Origin: an uncultured Acidimicrobiales bacterium
GTDB taxonomy: Bacteria; Actinomycetota; Geothermincolia; Fen-727; Anoxymicrobiaceae
Reading direction: 5' to 3'
NCBI GenBank assembly: GCA_964512645.1
Contig: CAZEJS010000010.1
Location: 7,022 to 71,021 of the forward strand
Length of the DNA stretch: 64,000 nt
Shown here: positions 1,650-37,088 of the stretch, one piece after another
Layout: every line of letters begins with the position of its first letter
Numbering within the stretch: position 1 is the first letter of the stretch
Made by a program: the position numbers and the translations under genes
The notes under the pieces: model-generated
Told to the model about the DNA's origin: nothing
Databases searched by the model: none
What the model saw: only the letters and a program-made list of their open reading frames with translations

Positions 1650-1727
1650 CGGGACGTGGCGCAGTCAGGTTAGCGCACTGGTCTGGGGGACCAGGGGTCG
1701 CCGGTTCAAATCCGGCCGTCCCGACCA
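1650..1727 (+). tRNA. tRNA-Pro (anticodon GGG) with encoded CCA
   Basis: Manual cloverleaf: acceptor CGGGACG/CGTCCCG; D-stem GCGC/GCGC; anticodon stem CTGGT/ACCAG with loop CTGGGGG (U33, GGG, G37); T-stem GCCGG/CCGGC with loop TTCAAAT; discriminator A, then CCA. Confidence 0.85.
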
Positions 1728-5292: not shown

Positions 5293-6717
5293 GTGGTTGT
5301 GGTGAATGAGATTGCTTTTGGCACCGATGGCTGGCGTTCCACGGTCGACACCGATTTCAACGAAGAGAACGTGAGGATCGTTACTCAGGCCATCTGCAAC
5401 TACCTCTACGAGAAAGAGCTCGCGCAGAAAGGCTGCGTAGTCGCCTACGATACCAGGACGCACTCCGAGGGGTTCTCCGAGATCGTCGCCGACGTGCTTG
5501 TGCGCAACGGCATCGCGGCCTTGAGGATGGAAACGTTCTGCCCTACGCCGCAGGCGGCTTTCGCCGTCAAGCAAGTGGGCGCCGCCGGAGCCATAATGCT
5601 GACCGCGAGCCACAACCCCCCCGCGTATAACGGCATCAAGTTCATACCGCACTATGCCGGACCCGCAACTCCCGACATCACCGACGATATCGAATGGGAG
5701 ATCGGCACTCTCAGGGAGGAAGGAACGACGGAGCCCCCCGTGGAGCGCACCATCGGCCCCTTGAAGAAACTCGACGTCAGCAACGAATACATCAAGCACC
5801 TGCTTACTCTCGTCGAACGATCCGTCATCGAACGCTCGAAGGTCAAGGTGCTGTTCGACCCGATGTACGGGTCGGGACAGAACGTGTTCATGCGAGCGCT
5901 CGCGCACATGGACACTTTTGTCGTGCCCCTCCACTGCTACCTCGACCCGGATTTCGGAGGCCTGCTTCCGGAGCCGACGGAGGCCAACCTCGAGGAGTGC
6001 AAGAAGGCCGTGCTGGACAACCGCACGGACGTCGGCGTGGCGCTGGACGGCGACGCGGACCGTTTCGGCGTTGTCGATTCCCGGGGGGAGTACCTCAGCC
6101 CCAACAAGGCGCTGACACTCATCCTCTGGTACCTCCTGACTTACAAGCCGACAGGGGGGGCGGTAGCCCGTTCTCTGGCGACAACACATATGCTCGATAC
6201 GATAGCCGAGCACAACGGCTGCCGCGTGCTGGAAACCCCCGTGGGGTTCAAGTACATCGGCGAACTGATGCGCGAAAAGATGATCATCCTCGGCGCGGAG
6301 GAGAGCGGCGGCATGAGCGTGGCGGGACACATACCGGAGAAAGACGGGCTGGTGGCGGGACTGATACTCATCGAGATAGCGGCGCGTTTCAAGAAGCCCT
6401 TCTCCGAACTTCTGGACAACATCTACCGGGAGCTGGGCCCCTGTTACGACGAGCGCATCGATATCGAGATCGGAGAAGGCAAGAAGATGGAGCTCATGGA
6501 GACTCTCCGCGACGGCCCCCCGCGCAGGATCGGGGACGAAGACGTCGTAAAGGTTGACTTGAGGGACGGGGTCAAAGTCGTTACCGGGGAAGACTCCTGG
6601 ATACTTGTGCGGGCTTCCGGCACTGAACCCATGGTAAGGGTCTACGTGGAAGCTCGAACGCGCGAGGCTTTCGACAAGGTCAGGAAAACAGCGCTCAAGC
6701 TGGTCAAGGTGAAATGA
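5293..6717 (+). CDS. Phosphoglucomutase/phosphomannomutase (alpha-D-phosphohexomutase)
   Basis: FGTDGWRS and canonical TASHNPPAYNGIKF motifs; GEESGG sugar-binding loop. The start could be any of the GTG codons at 5293, 5299 or 5302. Confidence 0.85.
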   Translation: MVVVNEIAFGTDGWRSTVDTDFNEENVRIVTQAICNYLYEKELAQKGCVVAYDTRTHSEGFSEIVADVLVRNGIAALRMETFCPTPQAAFAVKQVGAAGAIMLTASHNPPAYNGIKFIPHYAGPATPDITDDIEWEIGTLREEGTTEPPVERTIGPLKKLDVSNEYIKHLLTLVERSVIERSKVKVLFDPMYGSGQNVFMRALAHMDTFVVPLHCYLDPDFGGLLPEPTEANLEECKKAVLDNRTDVGVALDGDADRFGVVDSRGEYLSPNKALTLILWYLLTYKPTGGAVARSLATTHMLDTIAEHNGCRVLETPVGFKYIGELMREKMIILGAEESGGMSVAGHIPEKDGLVAGLILIEIAARFKKPFSELLDNIYRELGPCYDERIDIEIGEGKKMELMETLRDGPPRRIGDEDVVKVDLRDGVKVVTGEDSWILVRASGTEPMVRVYVEARTREAFDKVRKTALKLVKVK

Positions 6718-6739: not shown

Positions 6740-7582
6740 ATGGGAAGCCTGAAGCTCTGCTGCGTGGCGCCTCACCCCCCCATACTGGTCCCCGAGGTCG
6801 GGGGGCCCGAGGCCGAAAAGGTCAGCGCCACAGCGCGGGCCCTGCACTCCCTGGCCGACGAGATAGAGGCGCTCGATTTGGACACCGTCGTAATCATGTC
6901 CCCCCACAGTCCCGTGTACGCTGAAGCGTTTGCCGTGAAAGGCGTACCGTCGCTCGGCGGTTCACTCCGGCAGTTCGGCGCGCCGCAGGTTCGCTACGAC
7001 TCCGAGACGGACCTCGAGTTGGCCGGTTCCCTGGTCGAAGCGGCCGCCTCGATGGACGTCCGCTGCGAGATGGTTGGGACGCGCGGATACCGTCATCCGG
7101 ACGTGTCCGATCTGGACCACGGCGTGCTGGTTCCCATGCATTTCCTGGCCCGAAAGAGGTACCCGCTGGTGTGCATATCTCTTTCGATGCTGGATTACCG
7201 CTCCCACTACAAGCTGGGCGTCGCCCTGCGCCGTGCCGTTGAAGAGAGCGGCCGGAACTGCCTATTCGTGGCTTCCGGCGACATGTCCCACCGGCTGCTG
7301 CCGGGCGCCCCGGCAGGCTACGATCCCCTTGGGGCCGATTTCGACGCCGAGATTGTCGAGATACTGTCGAGCGGAGAATTCCGCGGGCTTTTCGAGCTGG
7401 ACGACAGGCTGGTGGACAGGGCGGGTGAGTGCGGCCTCCGGCCGGTCTTCACTCTCGCCGGCGCCGTTGACGGCTACGCCAGGTCCAGCGGCGTGCTTTC
7501 GTACGAAGGGCCGTTCGGGGTAGGTTATCTTGTTGCCAGGGTCAAGCCGGGGGCGCGGGACGCGTCTCTTTCTATCCTTTGA
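6740..7582 (+). CDS. LigB-family (class III extradiol dioxygenase / DODA-YgiD / Memo-like) protein
   Basis: Colinear with YgiD/LigB: APHPP(ILVP), SPHSP, DHGVLVPMHF, VASGDMSHRL. A 4-bp overlap with the downstream AMMECR1 gene. Confidence 0.75.
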   Translation: MGSLKLCCVAPHPPILVPEVGGPEAEKVSATARALHSLADEIEALDLDTVVIMSPHSPVYAEAFAVKGVPSLGGSLRQFGAPQVRYDSETDLELAGSLVEAAASMDVRCEMVGTRGYRHPDVSDLDHGVLVPMHFLARKRYPLVCISLSMLDYRSHYKLGVALRRAVEESGRNCLFVASGDMSHRLLPGAPAGYDPLGADFDAEIVEILSSGEFRGLFELDDRLVDRAGECGLRPVFTLAGAVDGYARSSGVLSYEGPFGVGYLVARVKPGARDASLSIL

Positions 7583-27263: not shown

Positions 27264-28265
27264 CTAAGACCCCGGCACGACTATTTCGCAATCGACCCAC
27301 CGGACCCCCTTCAGGCCGACCGCTTCGGCCGCGCCCCTGGAGAGGTCGACCATCCGGTTGTCGGCCGATGGCCCCCTGTCGTTGACCTTCACGATGACGC
27401 TGCGCCCCAGGAAGGTAACCCTGAGATAGGTCCCCATCGGAAGGGTCCGGTGCGCACAGGTGAACGCGTACTGGTCGAAGGCTTCGCCGCTCGCCGTGGC
27501 CTTGCCCTGGGACTCGCCCCCGTACCAGCCGGCGTAGCCGCTGAAGATCTGCCCGGTCCTCACGAACCCTTTCTCGTCGGGCTTCGAGAAGATCCGGCCG
27601 GGTTCGAAGACCCTCGGGGCGGGAGTGTAGGTACCGGGAAGCTGCATAGCGATGAGCGAGGCGCTCACCTCTGCGAGCTCGTTCTTCTTGTTATCGAGCT
27701 CGGCCTGTATCGCGATGGTATCGGCTGTTTCGTGCAGGGCCGCCTGCTCCCTCTTGTACTCCTGCAGGCGTGTCTGGACCTCATGCAACCGCGATTTCTT
27801 CTCTCTCAGCCCTTCGAAAGCCTTGCTCTCGCTGGCGGCTATATTGAGCATGCGCTCGGACCAGACAAGGAAGTCGGTCACGTTGTCGCTTTCGAGGAGT
27901 CTCACCAGGGGGTCGGCGCGGCCGGCTACGTACAGGGCCCGGAACCTCCCGTTCAGGATCCGGCGCGCCGTTCGCACCGCCGCTTCGACGGCGTCTATCT
28001 CCATGTAGCACTCGAGTATCCGGCGCTCAACCTCGACAAGCCTCCGCGCTATCGACACCGAGTCCTGCTGTGAGGTTGCGAGCCTCGCCTCCAGAGAGGC
28101 GATCTCTTTCTCCAGAGTGCGCGCCCTCTCCTCCGCCGACATGAGGCTGTCCTGCACGACCTGTGCGAGGCAGGGCGATAGAAGGCCGGACGCGAGCGCC
28201 GCTACCAGCGCCGCGGCCAGCGCCGCGGCCGTGGCTCTTCTCGCGAAAGGTCGGACCTCGGGCAT
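27264..28265 (-). CDS. RlpA-like lytic transglycosylase (double-psi beta-barrel) with signal peptide and long coiled coil
   Basis: Signal peptide, coiled-coil middle region, C-terminal GWYGGESQGKATASGEAFDQYAFTCAHRTLPMGTYLRVT..GRSVIVKVNDRGP...VDLS RlpA DPBB signature. Confidence 0.8.
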   Translation of the reverse strand: MPEVRPFARRATAAALAAALVAALASGLLSPCLAQVVQDSLMSAEERARTLEKEIASLEARLATSQQDSVSIARRLVEVERRILECYMEIDAVEAAVRTARRILNGRFRALYVAGRADPLVRLLESDNVTDFLVWSERMLNIAASESKAFEGLREKKSRLHEVQTRLQEYKREQAALHETADTIAIQAELDNKKNELAEVSASLIAMQLPGTYTPAPRVFEPGRIFSKPDEKGFVRTGQIFSGYAGWYGGESQGKATASGEAFDQYAFTCAHRTLPMGTYLRVTFLGRSVIVKVNDRGPSADNRMVDLSRGAAEAVGLKGVRWVDCEIVVPGS

Positions 28266-28353
28266 TCTGCTCCCACTCCTTCGATACGGCCCTGTCTAAG
28301 GAAACATGTAATAAGATACCACATCTGATAATGATAATCAATTATAGTTGACA

Positions 28354-28389
28354 ATGATTGTTATGTTGCTAATGTTGCTGGTGTTGTAT
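28354..28389. repeat. Four tandem 9-bp repeats (ATGATTGTT/ATGTTGCTA/ATGTTGCTG/GTGTTGTAT) in the AT-rich promoter region of the RlpA-MBL-reductase operon
   Basis: Direct reading; an adjacent TATAAT (minus strand) lies about 80 nt upstream of the RlpA start; the region is strongly AT-rich in a GC-rich genome. Confidence 0.55.
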
Positions 28390-28407
28390 TTCAGCCCGGG
28401 TACGGAC

Positions 28408-29487
28408 TCAGCGCCTGCTCTGTGACACACGCCGGAGACCTTCGACCTGCTCGGGGGCTCCGGAGACGATGAGGATGTCACCCGCGTCGAGGACCGTATC
28501 GCCCCTCGGGTTTACCAGGAAGTCCCTCTTGGGCCTCTTGAGCCCGAGTATTCCCACGCCTTTCAGGTCCCCCACCAGGACATCCCTGATGGCCCGGCCG
28601 ATAACTGCGGCGCCAGGCTCGACGGAAATGTCCTCCAGGGTGAGTTCAACCAGCTCGCCGTGCGTTACAACGTCGAGGAAGTCGCAGACAAGCGGCTTGA
28701 GCAGCAGGGCGGCCATCCTCCTCCCTCCTACGTTGTGGGGAGAGATCGCGCGATCGGCGCCCGCGCGATATAGCTTCGATTCCGTGTCGTCGGAGTTGCA
28801 CCTGCCGACGATGAACATGTCGGGCCTTATCATTCTCGCGGTCATCGTAACGAAGAGGTTGTCGGCATCGGAGCTCAGTCCGGTCACCAGCCCGGCCGCG
28901 CGCTCGACTCCGGCTTTTCTCAGCATTCCCTCTTCGCTCGCGTCACCGGTGATGACTATGAATCCTTCGCCGCCGGCGCTCTCCGAGACCGCGGGGTCTT
29001 TCTCGATGACCACGACCGAAGTGCCCCTGGCCTGGCACTCCATCGCTATCTGCCGCCCAACGCGGCCGTAACCGCAGATAATGTAATGTCCGGTTATGTC
29101 GTGCAGCTCTTTCAAGGCCCTTCTCCTCCCCATGATGTCGAGGATCCTTCCCTCGATAAGCAGCTCGACGACGCTGGTCGTCACGTAGACCACGGTGGCT
29201 ACGCCCGCAATAATGATGATCATGGTGAATATCTGTCCAGCGCGAGACGGGAGGACGACCTCCCGGTACCCGACCGTGGCCACCGTGATCACGGTCATGT
29301 AAAGCGCCTCCCAGAAGTTGAGGCGCTCGATTATCATGTACCCGACAGTTCCAACCGTGATGAGTCCGAGGAAGATGAGCAACGCCGTCCTCAGGTGCCA
29401 GTATGGGCTTCTCCTGCTCCGCAAATCACACCCCTCGAAGGACTTCCAGGTACTGAAGCTTCGGTCTGCCCGGGCCGGCCGATCCAC
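28408..29487 (-). CDS. RCK-domain (TrkA-N/TrkA-C) two-TM cation channel, MthK-like, with a non-canonical selectivity filter TVGYRE
   Basis: TM1, pore helix FWEALYMTVITVATVGYRE (codons verified: GGG-TAC-CGG-GAG), TM2, then Rossmann YIICGYGRVGRQIA and a C-terminal TrkA-C domain. Confidence 0.8.
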   Translation of the reverse strand: MDRPARADRSFSTWKSFEGCDLRSRRSPYWHLRTALLIFLGLITVGTVGYMIIERLNFWEALYMTVITVATVGYREVVLPSRAGQIFTMIIIIAGVATVVYVTTSVVELLIEGRILDIMGRRRALKELHDITGHYIICGYGRVGRQIAMECQARGTSVVVIEKDPAVSESAGGEGFIVITGDASEEGMLRKAGVERAAGLVTGLSSDADNLFVTMTARMIRPDMFIVGRCNSDDTESKLYRAGADRAISPHNVGGRRMAALLLKPLVCDFLDVVTHGELVELTLEDISVEPGAAVIGRAIRDVLVGDLKGVGILGLKRPKRDFLVNPRGDTVLDAGDILIVSGAPEQVEGLRRVSQSRR

Positions 29488-29511
29488 GAACGAGGTGCGC
29501 GGGAGCGCCCC

Positions 29512-29982
29512 TCAGAGGAAATCCTGCGGCTCGACGTGGTCGAGAAAATCGCGGAAACGCTGGATTTCGTCCTCGTCGGCGGTCTCCATGACGATGCTGG
29601 CCTCGTCGAGCACTCCCTCGTTCGCGTAAATCGGCACATCCATGCGAACGGCCAGCGCTATCGCGTCGGACGGCCTGGCGCTTATCACGTGCTTGCCGCC
29701 GTCGGCGATCATTGTTATTTCGGCAAAGAAAGTCCCGTCTACGAGGTCGTTGATGAGCACCCTTTCCACGCCGACGTCCAGGTCGTCGAGGACGTTCTTG
29801 AAGAGGTCGTGCGTCATCGGCCTCGCCGTCTCGACTCCCTGTACGGCGAAGGCGATCGCCGTCGCCTCGAACGCACCAATCCATATCGGGAGGAAGCGGT
29901 CGCCCTCGTTCTCCTGGAGCAGGACTATCGGCTGATTCGTCGGCAGTTCCACGCGCACGCCCACGATGTTCATCTTGATCAT
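29512..29982 (-). CDS. Bifunctional nuclease family protein (DUF151/BFN)
   Basis: MIKMNIVGVRVELPTNQPIVLL..RFLPIWIGAFEATAIA matches the BFN family; start at ATG 29982, or at 29973; 24 nt upstream of the channel gene. Confidence 0.8.
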   Translation of the reverse strand: MIKMNIVGVRVELPTNQPIVLLQENEGDRFLPIWIGAFEATAIAFAVQGVETARPMTHDLFKNVLDDLDVGVERVLINDLVDGTFFAEITMIADGGKHVISARPSDAIALAVRMDVPIYANEGVLDEASIVMETADEDEIQRFRDFLDHVEPQDFL

Positions 29983-30108
29983 CTGCCTCACCGACTCCTT
30001 TATACTCCAACGCCATACCCCGGTCAAACAACGCCGGAAAGGCGGCTGCGGGGGCTCCGTCCCGCCTCAACGCAAGACCCTTCAGACCGCGCGGAGACGC
30101 CGGACGAC

Positions 30109-31512
30109 TCAGAAAATGCGAAACGGCGCGGAGATGATCCTGCCCATCCAGCAGGCACTGTACCAGAAGAACGCCCAGATCGCTCCGGGGAGATTGGAAC
30201 CGGACTGCGCACGAGCCGCAACGGCCTCGACGCCGGCGAAAGCCGAGTTGTCGAGGGTCACGGTTATCGTGCCCAGCTTCTGGCCGGCTCTGACCGGCGA
30301 GCCCGCGCTCCGCTGGACGGCGGTCGCAACCTTGAACACATCGCCGGACCCCACGAAAGTCAGAGAAGCCAGGTCCCCGCCGGACACCACGCCGACCGAG
30401 CGCCTCGGGAAGGAGCTCACCCTGCACCGCCCGAGTTTCTGGCCCTTGCCGGAGAAAACCAGGCGGGCGGTGTTGCCGAAGCCGTAGTTGAACAGCGCCG
30501 AGACGTCGTCGGCTCTGTGCGAGCTGTTCAGAACCACCGCGATCAGGCCTTTGCCGTCACGCTTGGCTGATGCCGCAAGGCACATGCCGGCCTTTCCCGT
30601 GTAGCCGGTCTTGATCCCGTCGGCGCCTTGGTAGCGGGCCAGGATCTCGTTGTGTCCCACGGCGACCCGGTCCCAGGGCTGTCCTGGCGTGGGAATGGAG
30701 TATTTCGGCGTGGATACGATTCTCGCCAGCACCGGGTCCCGCATGACCGCCCGGCCTATCAGTGCGAGGTCGTAGGCGCTCGAGTAGTGATCTCCCTGGT
30801 CCAGGCCGTGAGGGTTGGTGAAGTGGGAGTCCCTGGCACCGATATCCGCAGCCATCTTGTTCATGAGACCGGCGAACGCATCCGGAGACCCTCCGGCGTG
30901 CTGTGCCAGAGCGAATGCCGCGTCGTTGGCGGACTGGATGAGCATGACGTTCAACAATTGCTCGACGGTGAGGGTCTCCCCGGCAATCAGGTTGATGGAC
31001 TCCTCTCCGACCTGGACGGCCTCCGGGGTGATCTCCACCCGCTCCTTGAGGCCGCACCTGGCCCTGACCACCAGGGCGGTCATCATCTTGGTTGTGCTCG
31101 CCATCGGCAGCCTGGAATGGGCGTTTTTATCGTAAAGCACCCTGCCGCTGTCAAGGTCGGTAAGCACCGCCGCATCCGCCCAGACCCCCGGCGCGGCGTC
31201 TTTCGTGCCCGGTGGTGCCTTATATTCCTTCAGCGTCTCGGCAACAGTCGGTCCGGCGTTCGCGTCGGCGAGGGCAAGCAGGCAGGACACGAAGAAGAGA
31301 AAAACCAGCAACGCCAGCACACCGACGGCAGCGGCCCTTGTCTTCTTGACCCCGGATACCCGCACCCGCGCGTCAGGTCGCCCTCGCTCTCCCGGCCCTT
31401 CGGGGCGCGCGCGAACGGGCGCCGCCGTTCGGGGCGTGTCCGCCTTCGAACGTCGAACCGGCTTACGCCTCGACCTCCTGTTGAGGTAATCCTCGGTATA
31501 GACTCTCTTCAT
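30109..31512 (-). CDS. dac: D-alanyl-D-alanine carboxypeptidase (serine-type, PBP5/DacB-like) with an N-terminal membrane anchor
   Basis: TM segment followed by SxxK (ASTTK), SGN-like and KTG motifs. The start is ambiguous: ATG 31512 or the upstream GTG 31593. Confidence 0.8.
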   Translation of the reverse strand: MKRVYTEDYLNRRSRRKPVRRSKADTPRTAAPVRARPEGPGERGRPDARVRVSGVKKTRAAAVGVLALLVFLFFVSCLLALADANAGPTVAETLKEYKAPPGTKDAAPGVWADAAVLTDLDSGRVLYDKNAHSRLPMASTTKMMTALVVRARCGLKERVEITPEAVQVGEESINLIAGETLTVEQLLNVMLIQSANDAAFALAQHAGGSPDAFAGLMNKMAADIGARDSHFTNPHGLDQGDHYSSAYDLALIGRAVMRDPVLARIVSTPKYSIPTPGQPWDRVAVGHNEILARYQGADGIKTGYTGKAGMCLAASAKRDGKGLIAVVLNSSHRADDVSALFNYGFGNTARLVFSGKGQKLGRCRVSSFPRRSVGVVSGGDLASLTFVGSGDVFKVATAVQRSAGSPVRAGQKLGTITVTLDNSAFAGVEAVAARAQSGSNLPGAIWAFFWYSACWMGRIISAPFRIF

Positions 31513-31672
31513 ACGCTCGCAGTGCGCTCTTCCAACACAAAAAGCCACGCACGATACCGCCGTCTGTCCATGCCATAGCGGGCCGGACAGCACATTTGAC
31601 CGATATCACCGCGGCCAGGTTCCACCAGAGTATATCCCAGCGCGAAACGGCCAACAACACGGGTGTTCTTGC

Positions 31673-32263
31673 TCAACGCGTGTGCCGCCCCTCGATCACC
31701 ACGGCCCCCTCTTCCACCCTCTGCACCGCCGCCCAGGGAATGACCTCCGAGTCGTGTCTGCTCCCGTGCTTTCTCCTCAATCCGTCGATGTAGCTCCTGA
31801 GCCCGGTACTGGCGATCAACATCCCGCGGCTCACCTCCAGTCCGGCGATATCAAGCGATCCGCCCGAGCACGCCAGGACGACGTCGTCGACCCTCTGTAT
31901 CTTCATCCCGTAAGTGTCGACCATCTGCTTGTCCAGGATGTCACGCCTTACGAGCCACTTGCCGGACGCGCTCCGCACCGGGAGCCGGGGGTGAGCGCAG
32001 GAGAGCGTGATCAGCTCCGCGCCGGTGTCCTCGCGCGCCACCTCCCCCCAGGGCAACAGAACCACGATGTCCTCCGCTCGCCGGGCCAGTTCTATCACTC
32101 CCACCCTGTCGGTCCACAGCAGGTGCACGGCAAGGTAACCGATGCGGGGGGCATCACGCGGGTCGAGCGCGAGGTCCTGCAGGTGTCCCACGTGTCTGCC
32201 CTCGCAGTCCTCGACCCTGACCTTCAGCAGTTCCCTGATCCGGAGCTGTTCACCCTCTACCAT
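31673..32263 (-). CDS. PRC-barrel domain protein, stand-alone paralogue of the MgtE N-terminal extension
   Basis: 196 aa; it aligns with residues of about 10-170 of the adjacent MgtE (RVEDCEGRHVGHLQDLAL vs RIEDEPGVRIGRVSDVVV; LVRRDILDKQMVDTYGMKIQRVDDVVLA vs LYRDLLDKQIVDMDGYRIVRVGDIRIA). SD AAAGGAG; overlaps the mntH stop. Confidence 0.75.
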   Translation of the reverse strand: MVEGEQLRIRELLKVRVEDCEGRHVGHLQDLALDPRDAPRIGYLAVHLLWTDRVGVIELARRAEDIVVLLPWGEVAREDTGAELITLSCAHPRLPVRSASGKWLVRRDILDKQMVDTYGMKIQRVDDVVLACSGGSLDIAGLEVSRGMLIASTGLRSYIDGLRRKHGSRHDSEVIPWAAVQRVEEGAVVIEGRHTR

Positions 32264-32280
32264 TGCGCCCGGCTCCTTTC

Positions 32281-33546
32281 TCACCTGCCGACAATCCGCA
32301 AGCTCGACAGGACCAGCCACAGGTCGAGCCCGTACAGGACCGCGACCGCGACCCACGCCACGACGTTGTAGGCACCGCCGTTGACGTGGTCTCCCATTAC
32401 GTCCCTGTCCCTTATGATCTTCAGCATGCAGGTCAGGACCACCGGGAGGAGCAGCCCGTTGATGGCCTGCGATGCCAGCATCACTGTTATGAGGGGAACC
32501 TTCGGCACAAGCACCACCGCCGCACCGCCGGCTATGAACACGGTGTACACGGTGTAGAAATTCGGCGCCTCCGAGATGGTCCGGTCGATACCGTACTCCC
32601 AGCCGAACGCCTCGCAGACGGTGTACGCGGTGGTCAACGGGAGTATGCAGGCGGCGAAGAGGGAGGCGAACAGAAGACCGAAAGCGAACAGGCTGGAAGC
32701 GTAGCGTCCGGCCACCGGCGCCAGCGCACGCGCCGCCTGGTCGGCCGAGGTGATGCTGGTCGCCCCCACCCCGGGCTTGTTGAAGAACGCCGCGGCGCAG
32801 CAGACGACTATCGCGCCAGCCGTTATCGTGAGAAAGACCGCCCCCATCGCGGTGTCGACCCGCTCGTAGGCGAGGTCGGACGCCTTCAAACCCTTGTCCA
32901 CCACCGATGACTGCTGGTAGAACTGCCCCCACGGGGCTATGGTCGTTCCCACTATGGTTATGACCATCAGGATATAAGCAGCGTCGAGCTGCCCGCCCGG
33001 CACGAAAGCGCCCCTTGCCACCTGGCCCCACTCGGGCTTCGCCAGTATCGCGGACACGATGTAAGCGATGTAGACGACGCTGACGAGCAGGAAGACCTTC
33101 TCTACGCGCTTGTAGCTGCCTTTGAGCACCAGGAACCAGACCAGCGCAGCCGACACCGGCACCGCTATCCAGCCGGGCACCCCGAAGACGTGCGCGCTCG
33201 CGGAGATGCCCGCGAAGTTGGAAACGGTGTTGGCGAAGTTGGCCAGTATCATCGCCAGCATTATCAAAGCGGTCAACCTGAAAGAGAACTCTTCTCTTAT
33301 CAGGGCGGCGAGCCCCTTGCCGGTGACGACACCCATCCTCGCGTTCATCTCCTGGACCATGAACAGGAGTATCCCCGCCGGTATCAGAACCCAGAGTATC
33401 TGGTAGCCGTAACGCGCGCCGGCGACGGAGTAGGTGGCGATGCCCCCTGCGTCATTATCGGCGACCATGACGATAATCCCCGGCCCGAGCACCGAGAGCA
33501 GCATGAGCATCTTCTGTTTGTTCATCGCGCCCGCGAGCCGGCTCAC
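32281..33546 (-). CDS. mntH: NRAMP-family divalent metal (Mn2+/Fe2+) transporter
   Basis: GPGIIVMVADNDAGGIATYS...QEMNARMGVVTG motifs; 11 TM profile. Confidence 0.85.
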   Translation of the reverse strand: MSRLAGAMNKQKMLMLLSVLGPGIIVMVADNDAGGIATYSVAGARYGYQILWVLIPAGILLFMVQEMNARMGVVTGKGLAALIREEFSFRLTALIMLAMILANFANTVSNFAGISASAHVFGVPGWIAVPVSAALVWFLVLKGSYKRVEKVFLLVSVVYIAYIVSAILAKPEWGQVARGAFVPGGQLDAAYILMVITIVGTTIAPWGQFYQQSSVVDKGLKASDLAYERVDTAMGAVFLTITAGAIVVCCAAAFFNKPGVGATSITSADQAARALAPVAGRYASSLFAFGLLFASLFAACILPLTTAYTVCEAFGWEYGIDRTISEAPNFYTVYTVFIAGGAAVVLVPKVPLITVMLASQAINGLLLPVVLTCMLKIIRDRDVMGDHVNGGAYNVVAWVAVAVLYGLDLWLVLSSLRIVGR

Positions 33547-33567
33547 CTAATACCGCCCTTCATCGCC

Positions 33568-35370
33568 CTACAGCCAAGCCCCGGCCACCAGCAACCCGAC
33601 AGCCAGAAAGACCACAAGGGACGCTGCCATCACCGAGACACTCACGAGCCTCGCGGGGCCGACGACGGGCCTTGGCCCGGCCCTGCCGAGGATCACCGGT
33701 ACGCCGAAGCCCAGAAGTCCGGCCACGGAAATAGCCGCAAAGAGGGCCAGTGCCCCCGCCAGGGCCTGCCTGCCGATGTCCACCCAGACCAGTGCGGCCG
33801 CGAACCCCAGCGCGCTGACCAGCGCAGCCGCCGCGAAGGTCAGCAGGTACTCCCGGGCAAGCATCCTGGCTATCGCTCCCGGCGCCAGGCGGGACCCACG
33901 CACGTCCCGGACCGCCGCAGCCATGGACCACACGCTCACATCGTGTATCGCCCTCAGCGCGAGCGGCAGGAAATAGACTATCGCCAGCGCCAGCAGGAAC
34001 TCATTCTGGAACGCGTAGAAGAGGGCCATGGCGACGAGGCCGCCCAGAAAGGTCAACATGGTCGCGGCCCACCTGCGGATGTCGAGGGCGTTTCGCACCG
34101 GGGTCCCTTCCTCCTCGAAAGGCACCCCCGAGAGCTGAGCGAAATCCTCCCCCATCTCTTCACGCATCACGTCGATCGCGTCGTCGACCGTCACGATACC
34201 CTTCAATACGTGGTCCTCGTCTACGACGGGCACGGCGAGGAGGTTGTATCGCGTGAGCCGGTTTGCCACGCTCTCCTGGTCTTCGAGCGTCTCCGCCGTA
34301 ATCACGTCCCTCATCATCAGGCTCCCGACGTCCGCGCCGGGACTTGCCCGCAGAAGGTCCCTCAGCGAGAGCACTCCCGACAGGTGCCCTTCGCCGTCGA
34401 CGACGTATACGTAGTAGATGGTCTCGGCTTCGGAACCGACACGCCGAAGGTATTCGATGGTCTCCCCGGCTTTCATGGTCACCGGCACGGCGACGAACTC
34501 CGTGGTCATCCTGCCGCCCGCCGTTTCAGGATCGTAGCCGAGCAGTTCGGATACGATCGAAGACTCATCGATGCCCATGAGTGCCAGAAGGGTCTGGGCC
34601 TTGTCCCTCGGGAGCGAACCCAGGATGTCCGCCGCCTCGTCCGGGGGCATTATCTCCAGCAACTCGGAAAGTCTCTCGTCTTCCAGCGCATCCGCCACGT
34701 CCGAGCGGATGCCGGGCAGAATCCTGGAAAGCACCTCCGCCGCCTTCGCCTCCTCCACCAGAGTGAGGACCTTGTACCGCTGGTCTTCGGGAAGTTGCTC
34801 GATGATGTCAGCCAGGTCGGACGGGTGTACCTCCAGGAACTCCCGGTACGGCACACGGAGCCGGACGTCGTACGGCATAGGACCCATGGGCGAGACGAGG
34901 TTCCAGGGCACGATGCGGTCTTTGAAGACGGTGGCGTTCAAGCGCTTCAGCCGACCGGTCAGCGGCTGCAGGCCAAGCCGTCGGAGCAGCGCCAGCGCTC
35001 CCACGTCGGCGCCGATCACGCGCAGCTCCGGGCCGGACCTGGCGATACGGATGTCGCCGACCCTCACGATCCTGTATCCGTCCATGTCGACTATCTGCTT
35101 GTCCAGCAGGTCTCGGTACAGGAATATGTCGCCGCTCTCGGCGGTGGCTCCATACGGCGGCCTCTCCGCCACTACCCGGTCGGGCTCGACCCTGCTCACC
35201 GCGGACACGGGGAGAAAGAAAGTGCCGCCGCCCTTGTGGGCCCTGGCCATGAAACCTTTTACCCTGGGAAACCTGGCCTCACTCTCGACGACGACATCCG
35301 ACACCCTACCGATGCGCACCCCAGGTTCGTCTTCGATTCTCCTGCCCATCATCGCGCTCAGATACGGCAT
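33568..35370 (-). CDS. mgtE: Magnesium transporter MgtE with an N-terminal PRC-barrel extension
   Basis: MgtE N-domain, CBS pair, C-terminal 5-TM domain, plus about 150 extra N-terminal residues that resemble PRC-barrel domains. Confidence 0.85.
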   Translation of the reverse strand: MPYLSAMMGRRIEDEPGVRIGRVSDVVVESEARFPRVKGFMARAHKGGGTFFLPVSAVSRVEPDRVVAERPPYGATAESGDIFLYRDLLDKQIVDMDGYRIVRVGDIRIARSGPELRVIGADVGALALLRRLGLQPLTGRLKRLNATVFKDRIVPWNLVSPMGPMPYDVRLRVPYREFLEVHPSDLADIIEQLPEDQRYKVLTLVEEAKAAEVLSRILPGIRSDVADALEDERLSELLEIMPPDEAADILGSLPRDKAQTLLALMGIDESSIVSELLGYDPETAGGRMTTEFVAVPVTMKAGETIEYLRRVGSEAETIYYVYVVDGEGHLSGVLSLRDLLRASPGADVGSLMMRDVITAETLEDQESVANRLTRYNLLAVPVVDEDHVLKGIVTVDDAIDVMREEMGEDFAQLSGVPFEEEGTPVRNALDIRRWAATMLTFLGGLVAMALFYAFQNEFLLALAIVYFLPLALRAIHDVSVWSMAAAVRDVRGSRLAPGAIARMLAREYLLTFAAAALVSALGFAAALVWVDIGRQALAGALALFAAISVAGLLGFGVPVILGRAGPRPVVGPARLVSVSVMAASLVVFLAVGLLVAGAWL

Positions 35371-35394
35371 TGGAAGCTCCCGTCAGAAGGCGAC

Positions 35395-35416
35395 AAAAAA
35401 GCCCTCGGAAGAGGGC
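35395..35416 (-). terminator. Intrinsic-terminator hairpin inside the mgtE 5' leader (candidate riboswitch/attenuator expression platform)
   Basis: Minus strand reads GCCCTC-TTCC-GAGGGC-TTTTTT, about 20 nt upstream of the mgtE SD GGGAG/ATG. A candidate -10 TATAAT (plus 35584-35589) lies about 200 nt upstream. Confidence 0.55.
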
Positions 35417-35632
35417 GTCTCGATCACCCGTCCCCGATAGAATCAGCTCAAGGCACGCTCCCCTCCGCGTGATACCGCACGGACCGGAGCAGAGCCCTGT
35501 CAGGTATTGGTTTCTCGGGTCTGTCGCTTTCCATCATCTCAATCCCGCGCCCGCCCCCACCAGGGGAGCACGTCATTTCAACGATTATACAACAAGCCGG
35601 GCGGTGTTTCGGTGGTCGGCGCGAACGGGGTG

Positions 35633-36532
35633 TCATTCGAGGAACATCTGCTGGCCGGTTTCAGGCGAGCCGGGCGCCTCCTGCCCGGAATCCGGCCCTG
35701 CGCGCCTCTCGGCGGAGACTGCCCCTCCCTCGCCGCCTTCCGCCGGCGCACCGGCAGGAGCCTCGCCGCCTTCGCTCACCGTATCCATGTCCGCGTCCTC
35801 CCCGCTCTCCTCCTCGAGGATGTCCAGGCCGGCCGGACGCGGTAGATACCGGGACAGCGCCTCCCTCAGCAGAGCCCCGGTAAACATCTGGGACAGCGAC
35901 ATCAGGTTCTCGAGGTCCTTTATGGCGGCCCTCTTGGTGTTGGGGTCTTTGTGCTGCAAGTGCGGCCGGATGATCTGCTCGATGAACGAAGCCTCTCGTC
36001 CGACGAACTGCGTGTACATCCTCAAGTGCCTGGGCTCTACCCCGTAACGAAAGAACTCCTTGGCGAGGTTGAGTATCTTCATCTCCGACGGAGGGAAGTA
36101 CTTGCCTTCAGGGCCTTCATGCACGGCCACGATGCCGTATTCGACGAGCTCCTTCACCGTCTCCGCGGAAAGTCCGAGCTTTGCGGGAGCAAGGTCCAGC
36201 GACACCGGGACGGCCCCTGCCAGAGACGGTTCGGCGCCCTGTCCGGACATGACAGCAAGTTCGCCCGCGACCGCCTTTCCGCTACGGAGGTCCTGTATCT
36301 TCCGTTTGATAACCGAGAGCGGAAGATACTCCTCACGTTGAAGTCGAAGTATATAGCTGAGTTGCTTGATGTTCGCGCGAGAGTACTTGCGGTATCCGCT
36401 CTGGGTGCGCTCGGGATTGATCAGACCCTCTTTTTCGAGGAAACGAATCTTGCTTATGGTTATGTCCGGGAACTCCTTCTTCAGCAACTCCTGGACTTCG
36501 CCGATGCCGTATTTCTTTTCCTCTGAAGCCAT
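35633..36532 (-). CDS. MerR-family transcriptional regulator with a long C-terminal domain (Rv1828-like)
   Basis: N-terminal MerR HTH (YGIGEVQELL...ISKIRFLEKEGLI..R...GYRKYS), C-terminal effector region and an acidic tail. Confidence 0.8.
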   Translation of the reverse strand: MASEEKKYGIGEVQELLKKEFPDITISKIRFLEKEGLINPERTQSGYRKYSRANIKQLSYILRLQREEYLPLSVIKRKIQDLRSGKAVAGELAVMSGQGAEPSLAGAVPVSLDLAPAKLGLSAETVKELVEYGIVAVHEGPEGKYFPPSEMKILNLAKEFFRYGVEPRHLRMYTQFVGREASFIEQIIRPHLQHKDPNTKRAAIKDLENLMSLSQMFTGALLREALSRYLPRPAGLDILEEESGEDADMDTVSEGGEAPAGAPAEGGEGGAVSAERRAGPDSGQEAPGSPETGQQMFLE

Positions 36533-36579
36533 TGTTAAACCTCATGAGAAGTCTGAACATAAAGTCAAACCTTAATTGC

Positions 36580-36610
36580 TAATATGCTCAATTCCGGGTG
36601 TGAATGTCAA
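36580..36610 (-). promoter_or_regulatory. Candidate promoter of the MerR gene with a perfect -35 TTGACA and an over-long spacer
   Basis: Minus strand TTGACA (plus 36605-36610), then a 19-20-nt spacer before ATATTA/TATTAG; an elongated spacer is typical of MerR-type promoters. Confidence 0.3.
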
Positions 36611-36620
36611 CACCTGCGGC

Positions 36621-37088
36621 TCATTTGCAGAAAAATATGAGCCGGAACTTCCCTATCTGGATCTCGTCTCCGCTGGAGAGATCCGATTCCTCAACCCTCA
36701 ACTTGTTGACATAGGTGCCGTTGAGGCTGCCCATGTCCTGGATCCTGAAACGTTCCCCGTCCTTACGGATCTCCGCGTGCCTCCTCGACACGGTGATGTC
36801 ATCGAGGAAGACGTCGCTCTCGGGATGCCTTCCGGCTGTTGTAACGTCTTTGGTGAGAACGAAGCGGGTTCCCGCGTTCGGCCCCCTCTTGACGACCAGC
36901 ATCGAAGCACCCGGCAGCAGCTCGTCTTCCGGAACGGCTATCTCCGCTTCGTGCTCGACCTCGGCCTCAACAGGGGTCAGCGTTATGGTGGTGTCCCCGT
37001 CCGGACTCGCCCCCAGGTAGGCGCCGCACTGGCTGCAATAGGTGCTGTCCTCCGGGTTGTTTCTGCCGCACGCGGGGCAAAACATCAC
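36621..37088 (-). CDS. FHA-domain protein with an N-terminal zinc ribbon (GarA/OdhI-like)
   Basis: CPACG...CSQCG Zn-ribbon, then FHA core (GR....D..L.D..VSRRHAEI...G..F.I.D.GSLNGTYVN). Confidence 0.85.
   Translation of the reverse strand: MMFCPACGRNNPEDSTYCSQCGAYLGASPDGDTTITLTPVEAEVEHEAEIAVPEDELLPGASMLVVKRGPNAGTRFVLTKDVTTAGRHPESDVFLDDITVSRRHAEIRKDGERFRIQDMGSLNGTYVNKLRVEESDLSSGDEIQIGKFRLIFFCK

Follow-up and report, generated by a model that had tools for sequence, protein, structure and literature searches.

The described channel closest to the protein reported here, both in full-length sequence and in fold, is MthK, the Ca2+-gated K+ channel of Methanothermobacter (PDB 1LNQ and 6OLY), in which each subunit comprises a first transmembrane helix (TM1), a pore helix, a selectivity filter, a second transmembrane helix (TM2) and one RCK domain made of an N lobe and a C lobe. 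We analyzed a stretch of 64,000 nucleotides (positions 7,022 to 71,021 of contig CAZEJS010000010.1, assembly GCA_964512645.1) from an uncultured Acidimicrobiales bacterium, hereafter the window. A gene on its minus strand (28408..29424) encodes a putative channel subunit of the same layout, whose filter reads TVGYRE instead of the TVGYGD of MthK, that is to say, the second Gly of the GYG motif is an Arg. This second Gly of TxGYG is textbook-conserved and held necessary for K+ selectivity. The two proteins also differ in their gating domains: MthK binds Ca2+ through D184, E210 and E212 and has no GxGxxG motif, whereas the window protein has Gly, Arg and Asn at these 3 positions and an intact GxGxxG.

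Several other described systems share part of this arrangement. GsuK of Geobacter sulfurreducens (PDB 4GX5) likewise joins a 2-TM pore to nucleotide-binding RCK domains, and a study of GsuK reports its activation by ADP/NAD+ (PMC3510474); it differs in that each subunit carries 2 RCK domains and the filter is a canonical TLGFGD. The SKT proteins KtrB and TrkH, which associate with KtrA/TrkA KTN rings, are similar in their gating by a KTN/RCK nucleotide ring and in conserving only the first filter Gly of each P-loop (PMC6888753). However, in these proteins four repeats are fused in a monomer that has an intramembrane gating loop and works with a separate RCK subunit, whereas the window channel is expected to be a homotetramer with a covalently attached RCK domain and an otherwise intact T-V-G-Y. 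Altered filters with non-selective cation conduction occur in K+-channel-like relatives with filters of the NaK and CNG type (TVGDGN and TIGETP; PMC4607889) and in the NirBac channels (PMC9822992). NaK alters the Tyr and keeps the second Gly, and NirBac swaps the whole P-loop; by contrast, the window channel replaces the second Gly only. Natural GY-X filters without the second Gly are also found in trypanosomatid K+ channel homologues, for which a lack of selectivity or of function has been proposed (PMC3283738). Those proteins are eukaryotic, have a different architecture and adjoin canonical paralogues, whereas no such paralogue is present in the 64-kb window.

The filter residues T50-V51-G52-Y53-R54-E55 are encoded at 29260..29277 on the minus strand, with the Arg codon CGG at 29263-29265. 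The plus strand at 29260-29271 is ctcccggtaccc, and its reverse complement reads GGG TAC CGG GAG. In the alignment with MthK, TVATVGYRE of the window protein lies opposite TIATVGYGD, which places the Arg at the second Gly of GYG; the filter, its codons and the position of the Arg are thus as the preliminary description of this DNA had given them. The canonical T-x-G-[Y/F]-G signature is present up to its fourth residue (T50-V51-G52-Y53), and its second Gly is Arg54, with Arg at this position throughout the clade. A search for homologues with GYR filters, which that description had proposed as a check, found them in abundance: approximately 80 of the 120 best clusters at 90% identity, which come from ENA, JGI, NCBI and Logan assemblies, carry TVG[Y/F]RE, from 94% down to ~43% identity to the window protein. 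Clusters 76–89% identical bear the source names Ca. Geothermincolia and Ca. Anoxymicrobium. Arg is encoded by CGG in the window and in locus L001, whose channel is 82% identical, but by AGG in locus L003. Between the window and L001, the ratio of nonsynonymous to synonymous substitution rates (dN/dS) is 0.077 over the whole channel gene; it is 0.048 in the TM1-filter-TM2 core against 0.075 in the RCK domain, so that constraint on the pore is no weaker than on the RCK sensor. Comparison with its homologues identifies the gene as an evidently functional, vertically inherited member, with a 2-TM pore and a KTN/RCK domain, of a very large bacterial family.

Within that family the position of the second Gly is variable. 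An exhaustive HMMER search of 1.84 billion representatives at 50% identity returned 6,800 proteins at E ≤ 1e-10. Aligned to Arg54, the 144 nearest of the full-length representatives have Gly 54 times, Arg 36, Ser 15, Lys 9, Glu 8, Gln 7, Thr 5, Ala 3 and His 2 times, besides others, and ~60% of the nearest family clusters have a residue other than Gly there. The neighbouring filter columns are near-fixed in an alignment of 260 sequences: Thr at position 50 in 252/260, Val or Ile at 51 in 253/260 (Val alone in 217), Gly at 52 in 259/260, Tyr or Phe at 53 in 254/260 and Glu at 55 in 242/260. In a taxonomic scan of one genome per species, in which the closest relative among the matches listed had 48% identity, the matches listed place R-type filters in at least well over ten phyla, including Actinomycetota, Thermodesulfobacteriota, Nitrospirota, Acidobacteriota, Gemmatimonadota, Planctomycetota, Zixibacteria, Fibrobacterota and Bacillota; one R-type host, Thermodesulfobacterium thermophilum DSM 1276, is cultured. 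The Arg is thus no isolated oddity. It is the fixed state of this Geothermincolia clade and the commonest non-Gly state across the family.

Fitch parsimony on a neighbour-joining tree gave, by a rough count, at least 32 switches between Gly and non-Gly and 75 state changes, compared with ~68 switches for shuffled labels; the filter state is therefore clade-structured, yet it has changed many times. A compensating partner residue for the Arg was sought, and the one trend seen was a weak charge trade-off at residue 64 (29233-29235, at the start of TM2), which is Arg or Lys in 47 of the 54 G-type versus 26 of the 45 R/K-type representatives. On this matter, a 2026 preprint about minimal sets of prokaryotic channels notes only the full conservation of the first filter Gly in 2TM-RCK channels (10.64898/2026.03.26.714534). 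Full-text searches for the filter motif returned nothing relevant, and searches for non-canonical filters returned precedents only (NirBac, NaKTs, KtrB, UNC-58 and protozoan GYX).

Two further observations concern members of the family. The protein P0075, from a 1.5-kb ENA contig, is a mosaic whose RCK domain is 90% identical to that of P0020 and whose pore domain is 43% identical, with the filter TVGFSE; it is either a natural swap of the pore module or an assembly chimera. Rubrobacter-type relatives, in which X is Thr or Lys, have a separate gene for a soluble, TrkA-like RCK protein upstream of the channel (L012, 3094-3819, and L020, 1561-2292, both ~200 nt or less from the channel; L037, 13-663, ~3.3 kb off), which suggests a two-component gating ring.

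The MthK-like layout reported in the preliminary description (TM1, pore helix, filter, TM2 and RCK N and C domains) agrees with the Pfam domains, with the MthK alignment and with the predicted fold. The open reading frame (ORF) at 28408-29487 on the minus strand, which includes the channel gene, matches Ion_trans_2 (E = 3e-13; 49.7 bits against a cutoff of 22.5), TrkA_N (E = 4e-32) and TrkA_C (E = 2e-11). In phmmer searches of PDB sequences, the protein aligned end to end with MthK (E = 1e-32), and the best-scoring sequence was GsuK (E = 2e-34). An AlphaFold2 monomer model was built from 81 homologues, with a mean predicted local distance difference test score (pLDDT) of 78. In the model, TM1 (residues 7–33 in the 338-residue numbering; 29326..29406, minus strand) is followed by the pore helix (residues 37–48; 29281..29316, minus strand), which contains the clade-invariant LYMT, by the filter loop, by the inner helix TM2 (residues 61–91; 29152..29244, minus strand) and by a Rossmann fold. 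The best fold matches of the model in PDB were full-length MthK chains (E ~3e-23), and GsuK came next. The predicted arrangement of TM1, pore helix, filter loop and TM2 places the protein in the tetrameric P-loop K+ channel superfamily.

The RCK region consists of TrkA_N, the KTN/RCK Rossmann domain (28738..29085, minus strand), and TrkA_C, the C lobe (28429..28632, minus strand). The GxGxxG motif of TrkA_N is GYGRVG (29056-29073), and E141 ends β2. The 3 motif glycines are conserved in 260, 258 and 260 of the 260 aligned sequences, and the acidic residue is Glu or Asp in 258/260. At the columns of the MthK Ca2+ ligands the family has Ala, Val or Thr, then Arg (249/260), then Asn or Asp. Because the GxGxxG motif and the acidic residue are intact, the MthK Ca2+ ligands are absent and GsuK is the top PDB sequence, the RCK ligand is likely to be a nucleotide and not Ca2+. 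The channel gene also contains an in-frame ATG at Met98 (29131-29133), which aligns with M107, the internal start that is the source of soluble RCK in MthK; GAGGGAAGG lies 12–21 nt upstream of this ATG, and the Met is kept in just 112 of the 260 family members.

We consider it probable that the protein forms a pore which conducts cations and whose outer filter is altered and properties changed. Four subunits would assemble an MthK-like homotetrameric pore, and the cytoplasmic ring would gate this pore on binding not Ca2+ but a nucleotide such as NAD(H) or ATP/ADP. Residues T50, V51, G52 and Y53 would still provide the carbonyl and hydroxyl cages of the inner filter. The outer end of the filter would be altered, since its capping glycine has given way to another residue, and Arg54 would leave the outer mouth remodelled or charged. 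The pore would then conduct monovalent cations with a selectivity and/or conductance unlike those of a GYG channel, and the most likely change would be a reduced discrimination between K+ and Na+. Tetrameric channels with fewer than 4 contiguous filter sites, such as those with NaK or CNG-like filters, are non-selective. We propose only tentatively that the TVG[Y/F]-X-E channels in which X is not Gly, with Arg as the commonest residue, constitute a distinct, uncharacterised class of nucleotide-gated bacterial cation channels found in well over ten phyla, and that X acts over evolution as a tuning knob, which in this sample would have been turned at least ~30 times between K+-selective permeation and permeation that is non-selective or rectifying.

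Several points weigh against a conducting pore of changed properties: (i) KtrB and TrkH retain the first Gly only, yet KtrB is K+-selective in practice (PMC6888753), so that loss of selectivity is no safe prediction; (ii) four Arg residues at the mouth of a cation pore could block conduction; (iii) the monomer model, with a pLDDT of ~75 in the filter block, yields neither filter geometry nor side-chain placement; (iv) the tree behind the switch count was built by neighbour joining on Kimura distances and carries no support values, which makes the parsimony count a rough one; and (v) our literature search found no paper that describes or tests any member of the TVG[YF]XE group. The effects of single filter substitutions are hard to predict (PMC11513965), and the precedents for an effect of the filter change point both ways.

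It is possible, although we think it unlikely, that the channel is still K+-selective, with the Arg side chain held off-axis (for example, paired with Glu55 or with acidic residues of the turret) around a canonical four-site backbone, and with the position tuning conductance, rectification or blocker sensitivity. The near-invariance of T-V-G-[Y/F] and of the following Glu, together with the many side chains tolerated at X, fits a solvent-exposed position that is tolerant in geometry, and the occurrence of GYGE and GYRE proteins as positional orthologues in sister lineages (described below) suggests one physiological role for both. The weak charge trade-off at residue 64 and the selectivity of KtrB with one Gly per P-loop point in the same direction. 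On the other hand, the second filter Gly takes a left-handed backbone conformation in KcsA-type filters, into which the β-branched Thr that also occurs at X is hard to fit. In addition, mutation of the second Gly in canonical channels is reported to abolish selectivity or function, as cited in the study of the trypanosomatid homologues (PMC3283738).

It seems improbable that the protein serves as an RCK sensor that does not conduct, a possibility raised in the preliminary description, or as a regulatory subunit of obligate heteromers, with its pore plugged or its ions repelled by 4 guanidinium groups. For a cation pore, a mouth with four positive charges is unfavourable on electrostatic grounds, and lack of function is among the proposals made for the trypanosomatid GYX homologues. 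However, purifying selection within the gene is strongest on the pore core, and a non-conducting sensor is disfavoured because the constraint on the pore exceeds that on the RCK domain. The filter residues Thr, Val, Gly and Tyr/Phe are, moreover, invariant across the family. As for a heteromeric partner, the 64-kb window holds no second channel gene, and among the matches listed a second full-length channel lies nearby in just 1 of 80 related loci.

The gene upstream of the channel, also on the minus strand, encodes a BFN_dom/DUF151 protein of 156 residues (29512..29982) of the Rv1829(Cor)/TM0160 type. Its ORF (29512-30027) matches BFN_dom over profile positions 1–111 of 112 (142 bits, E = 6e-42), and the match to TM0160 has an E value of 1e-23. 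Orthologues of 156 residues are present in L001, L003 and L004, and a dN/dS of 0.091 against L001 indicates purifying selection. Like Rv1829 (Cor) of M. tuberculosis and TM0160 of T. maritima, the protein consists of a single BFN domain of ~160 residues. The preliminary description had called this neighbour a bifunctional nuclease, which is a family label only: recombinant Rv1829/Cor, the characterised actinobacterial member, is a dimer that showed no DNase or RNase activity, and MerR/SoxR-like regulators flank its gene (PMC3870250). Because Cor shows no nuclease activity, the family name DUF151 does not establish a nuclease function.

The distance between the 2 genes depends on the start codon of the channel. 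A spacing of 24 nt had been reported, which presupposed the upstream GTG at 29487 and a protein of 359 residues. The true start is probably the TTG at 29424, judging from the homologues. The nearest homologue clusters are 338 residues long and span 94% of the 359-residue ORF; L001 has an ATG at the position equivalent to the TTG, and the sequence upstream of that ATG is non-coding. A GAGGGG precedes the window TTG with a spacing of 6 nt. From the 338-residue homologues, the L001 ATG opposite the TTG and the non-coding sequence upstream, the gap is most likely 87 nt (29425..29511, minus strand) and not 24 nt; that both genes lie on the minus strand, with the channel gene 3′ of the BFN gene, stands as reported. 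A consensus scan of this 87-nt spacer found no promoter or terminator match, and its RNA is predicted to fold no more stably than shuffled sequence (z = +1.15). Co-transcription of the BFN and channel genes, which the preliminary description had stated as given, is possible on this arrangement. In L001, by contrast, a terminator-like hairpin with a 10-bp stem and a T-run (5938-5970) stands between the 2 genes and has no counterpart in the window. The GYGE-type loci L004 and L010 have spacers of 148–170 nt with a common conserved block directly upstream of the channel start; this non-coding block of ~60 nt (L004 5900-5985, L010 3890-3975; TATGGATAGC...CGGAGT.CGATACTATTTGC...AACAAGGCGACC) matched no Rfam family and may be a promoter or leader element.

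The genes around the pair set it in a broader order. Upstream of the BFN gene lies a Peptidase_S11 D-Ala-D-Ala carboxypeptidase gene (30109..31593, minus strand), which is part of a conserved synteny block. Farther upstream on the same strand are a MerR regulator gene (35633-36532), with counterparts that carry Rv1828_C in L003 and L004, and a GarA-like FHA/Zn-ribbon gene (36621-37088). Together with the BFN gene they make up the FHA-MerR-DUF151 cluster of actinobacteria, which in the window is broken up by genes for divalent-metal transport and the cell wall. This gene order is known from M. tuberculosis Rv1827-Rv1829, where FHA and MerR genes likewise lie near Rv1829. The window differs from that locus in that genes for MgtE_N/CBS/PRC, Nramp, small PRC-barrel and S11 proteins part MerR from BFN (all of these but S11 lie, with the FHA and MerR genes, at 31673-37088, minus strand, upstream) and in that a channel gene follows BFN.

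The S11-(PRTase)-BFN-channel block recurs in L001 (82% channel identity, GYRE), in L003 (66%, GYRE) and in L004, L009 and L010 (46–48%, TIGYGE). Both filter types occur in this one block, which makes positional orthologues of the GYGE and GYRE proteins, so that adjacency to BFN does not depend on the Arg. The more distant R/H-type loci L005 and L008 have no BFN gene, and in L006 the BFN gene lies 3.3 kb upstream on the same strand, behind 5 queuosine-pathway genes. In other phyla and families, a BFN gene was found within 4 kb of the channel in none of 78 further genome loci among the matches listed; direct adjacency is confined to Geothermincolia-type loci, with GYRE and GYGE filters alike. 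The pairing, which the preliminary description had called unusual, is best read from these loci as an inherited, lineage-specific gene order within one class.

We therefore consider it very improbable that the BFN protein and the channel form a functional two-gene module, be it a channel regulated by a nuclease, a cassette for stress or defence, or an operon that couples their expression. The 2 genes are neighbours on one strand, the 87 nt between them in the window show no terminator, their adjacency is retained across loci with 47–82% channel identity despite differing downstream genes, and L006 retains the BFN gene on the same strand. However, the adjacency is limited to one class, where it belongs to a longer collinear MgtE-S11-(PRT)-BFN-channel block; the L001 hairpin and the longer L004 and L010 gaps separate the genes; and the Cor-type BFN gene occurs widely in actinobacteria on its own (PMC3870250). 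The idea of a defence system was rejected, since neither the BFN protein nor the channel protein matched any PADLOC defence-protein model. Finally, a sequencing or assembly error behind the Arg codon, or a decaying pseudogene, the two scenarios that the preliminary description had named as refuting it, is excluded for practical purposes and has nothing in its favour, because the Arg is kept in ~80 independent clusters with synonymous codon change, the ORF is full-length with all domains intact and dN/dS is 0.05–0.08.

Downstream of the channel is a DPBB_1 (RlpA-like) gene (27264..28265, minus strand), with synteny in L001, L003 and L009. Between the channel stop at 28408 and the start of this gene at 28265 lies an AT-rich spacer of ~100 nt (28290-28400; GC 0.54–0.56, against 60–69% in the rest of the genome), which is not conserved in L001 or L003, has no Rfam match and is probably a promoter or leader of the DPBB gene. 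A c-di-AMP riboswitch of the ydaO type near the DPBB gene or the channel was considered and rejected, with no Rfam match, even at a permissive threshold; the sole gathering-level Rfam match in the window is a tRNA gene (1650-1724, plus strand). The region was also considered as a foreign island, and this was rejected because GC is even at 0.58–0.69 across it, save for the AT-richer spacer.

The locus is ordinary for its lineage, and the BFN neighbour carries no special meaning; the family-level filter pattern is moderately interesting, widespread and uncharacterised. Automatic annotation of these proteins as "potassium channel protein" may claim more than is known. A large and strongly constrained MthK-like bacterial family swaps the second Gly of the filter in most of its members, most often for Arg, while the rest of the filter is invariant. 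The syntenic GYGE and GYRE orthologues, which form a natural matched pair, and the cultured T. thermophilum make the question experimentally tractable. If the proteins conduct, the residues found at this position (Gly, Arg, Lys, Ser, Glu, Gln, Thr and others) would provide a natural series, on one scaffold, for the role of the outer filter in selectivity, conductance and rectification.

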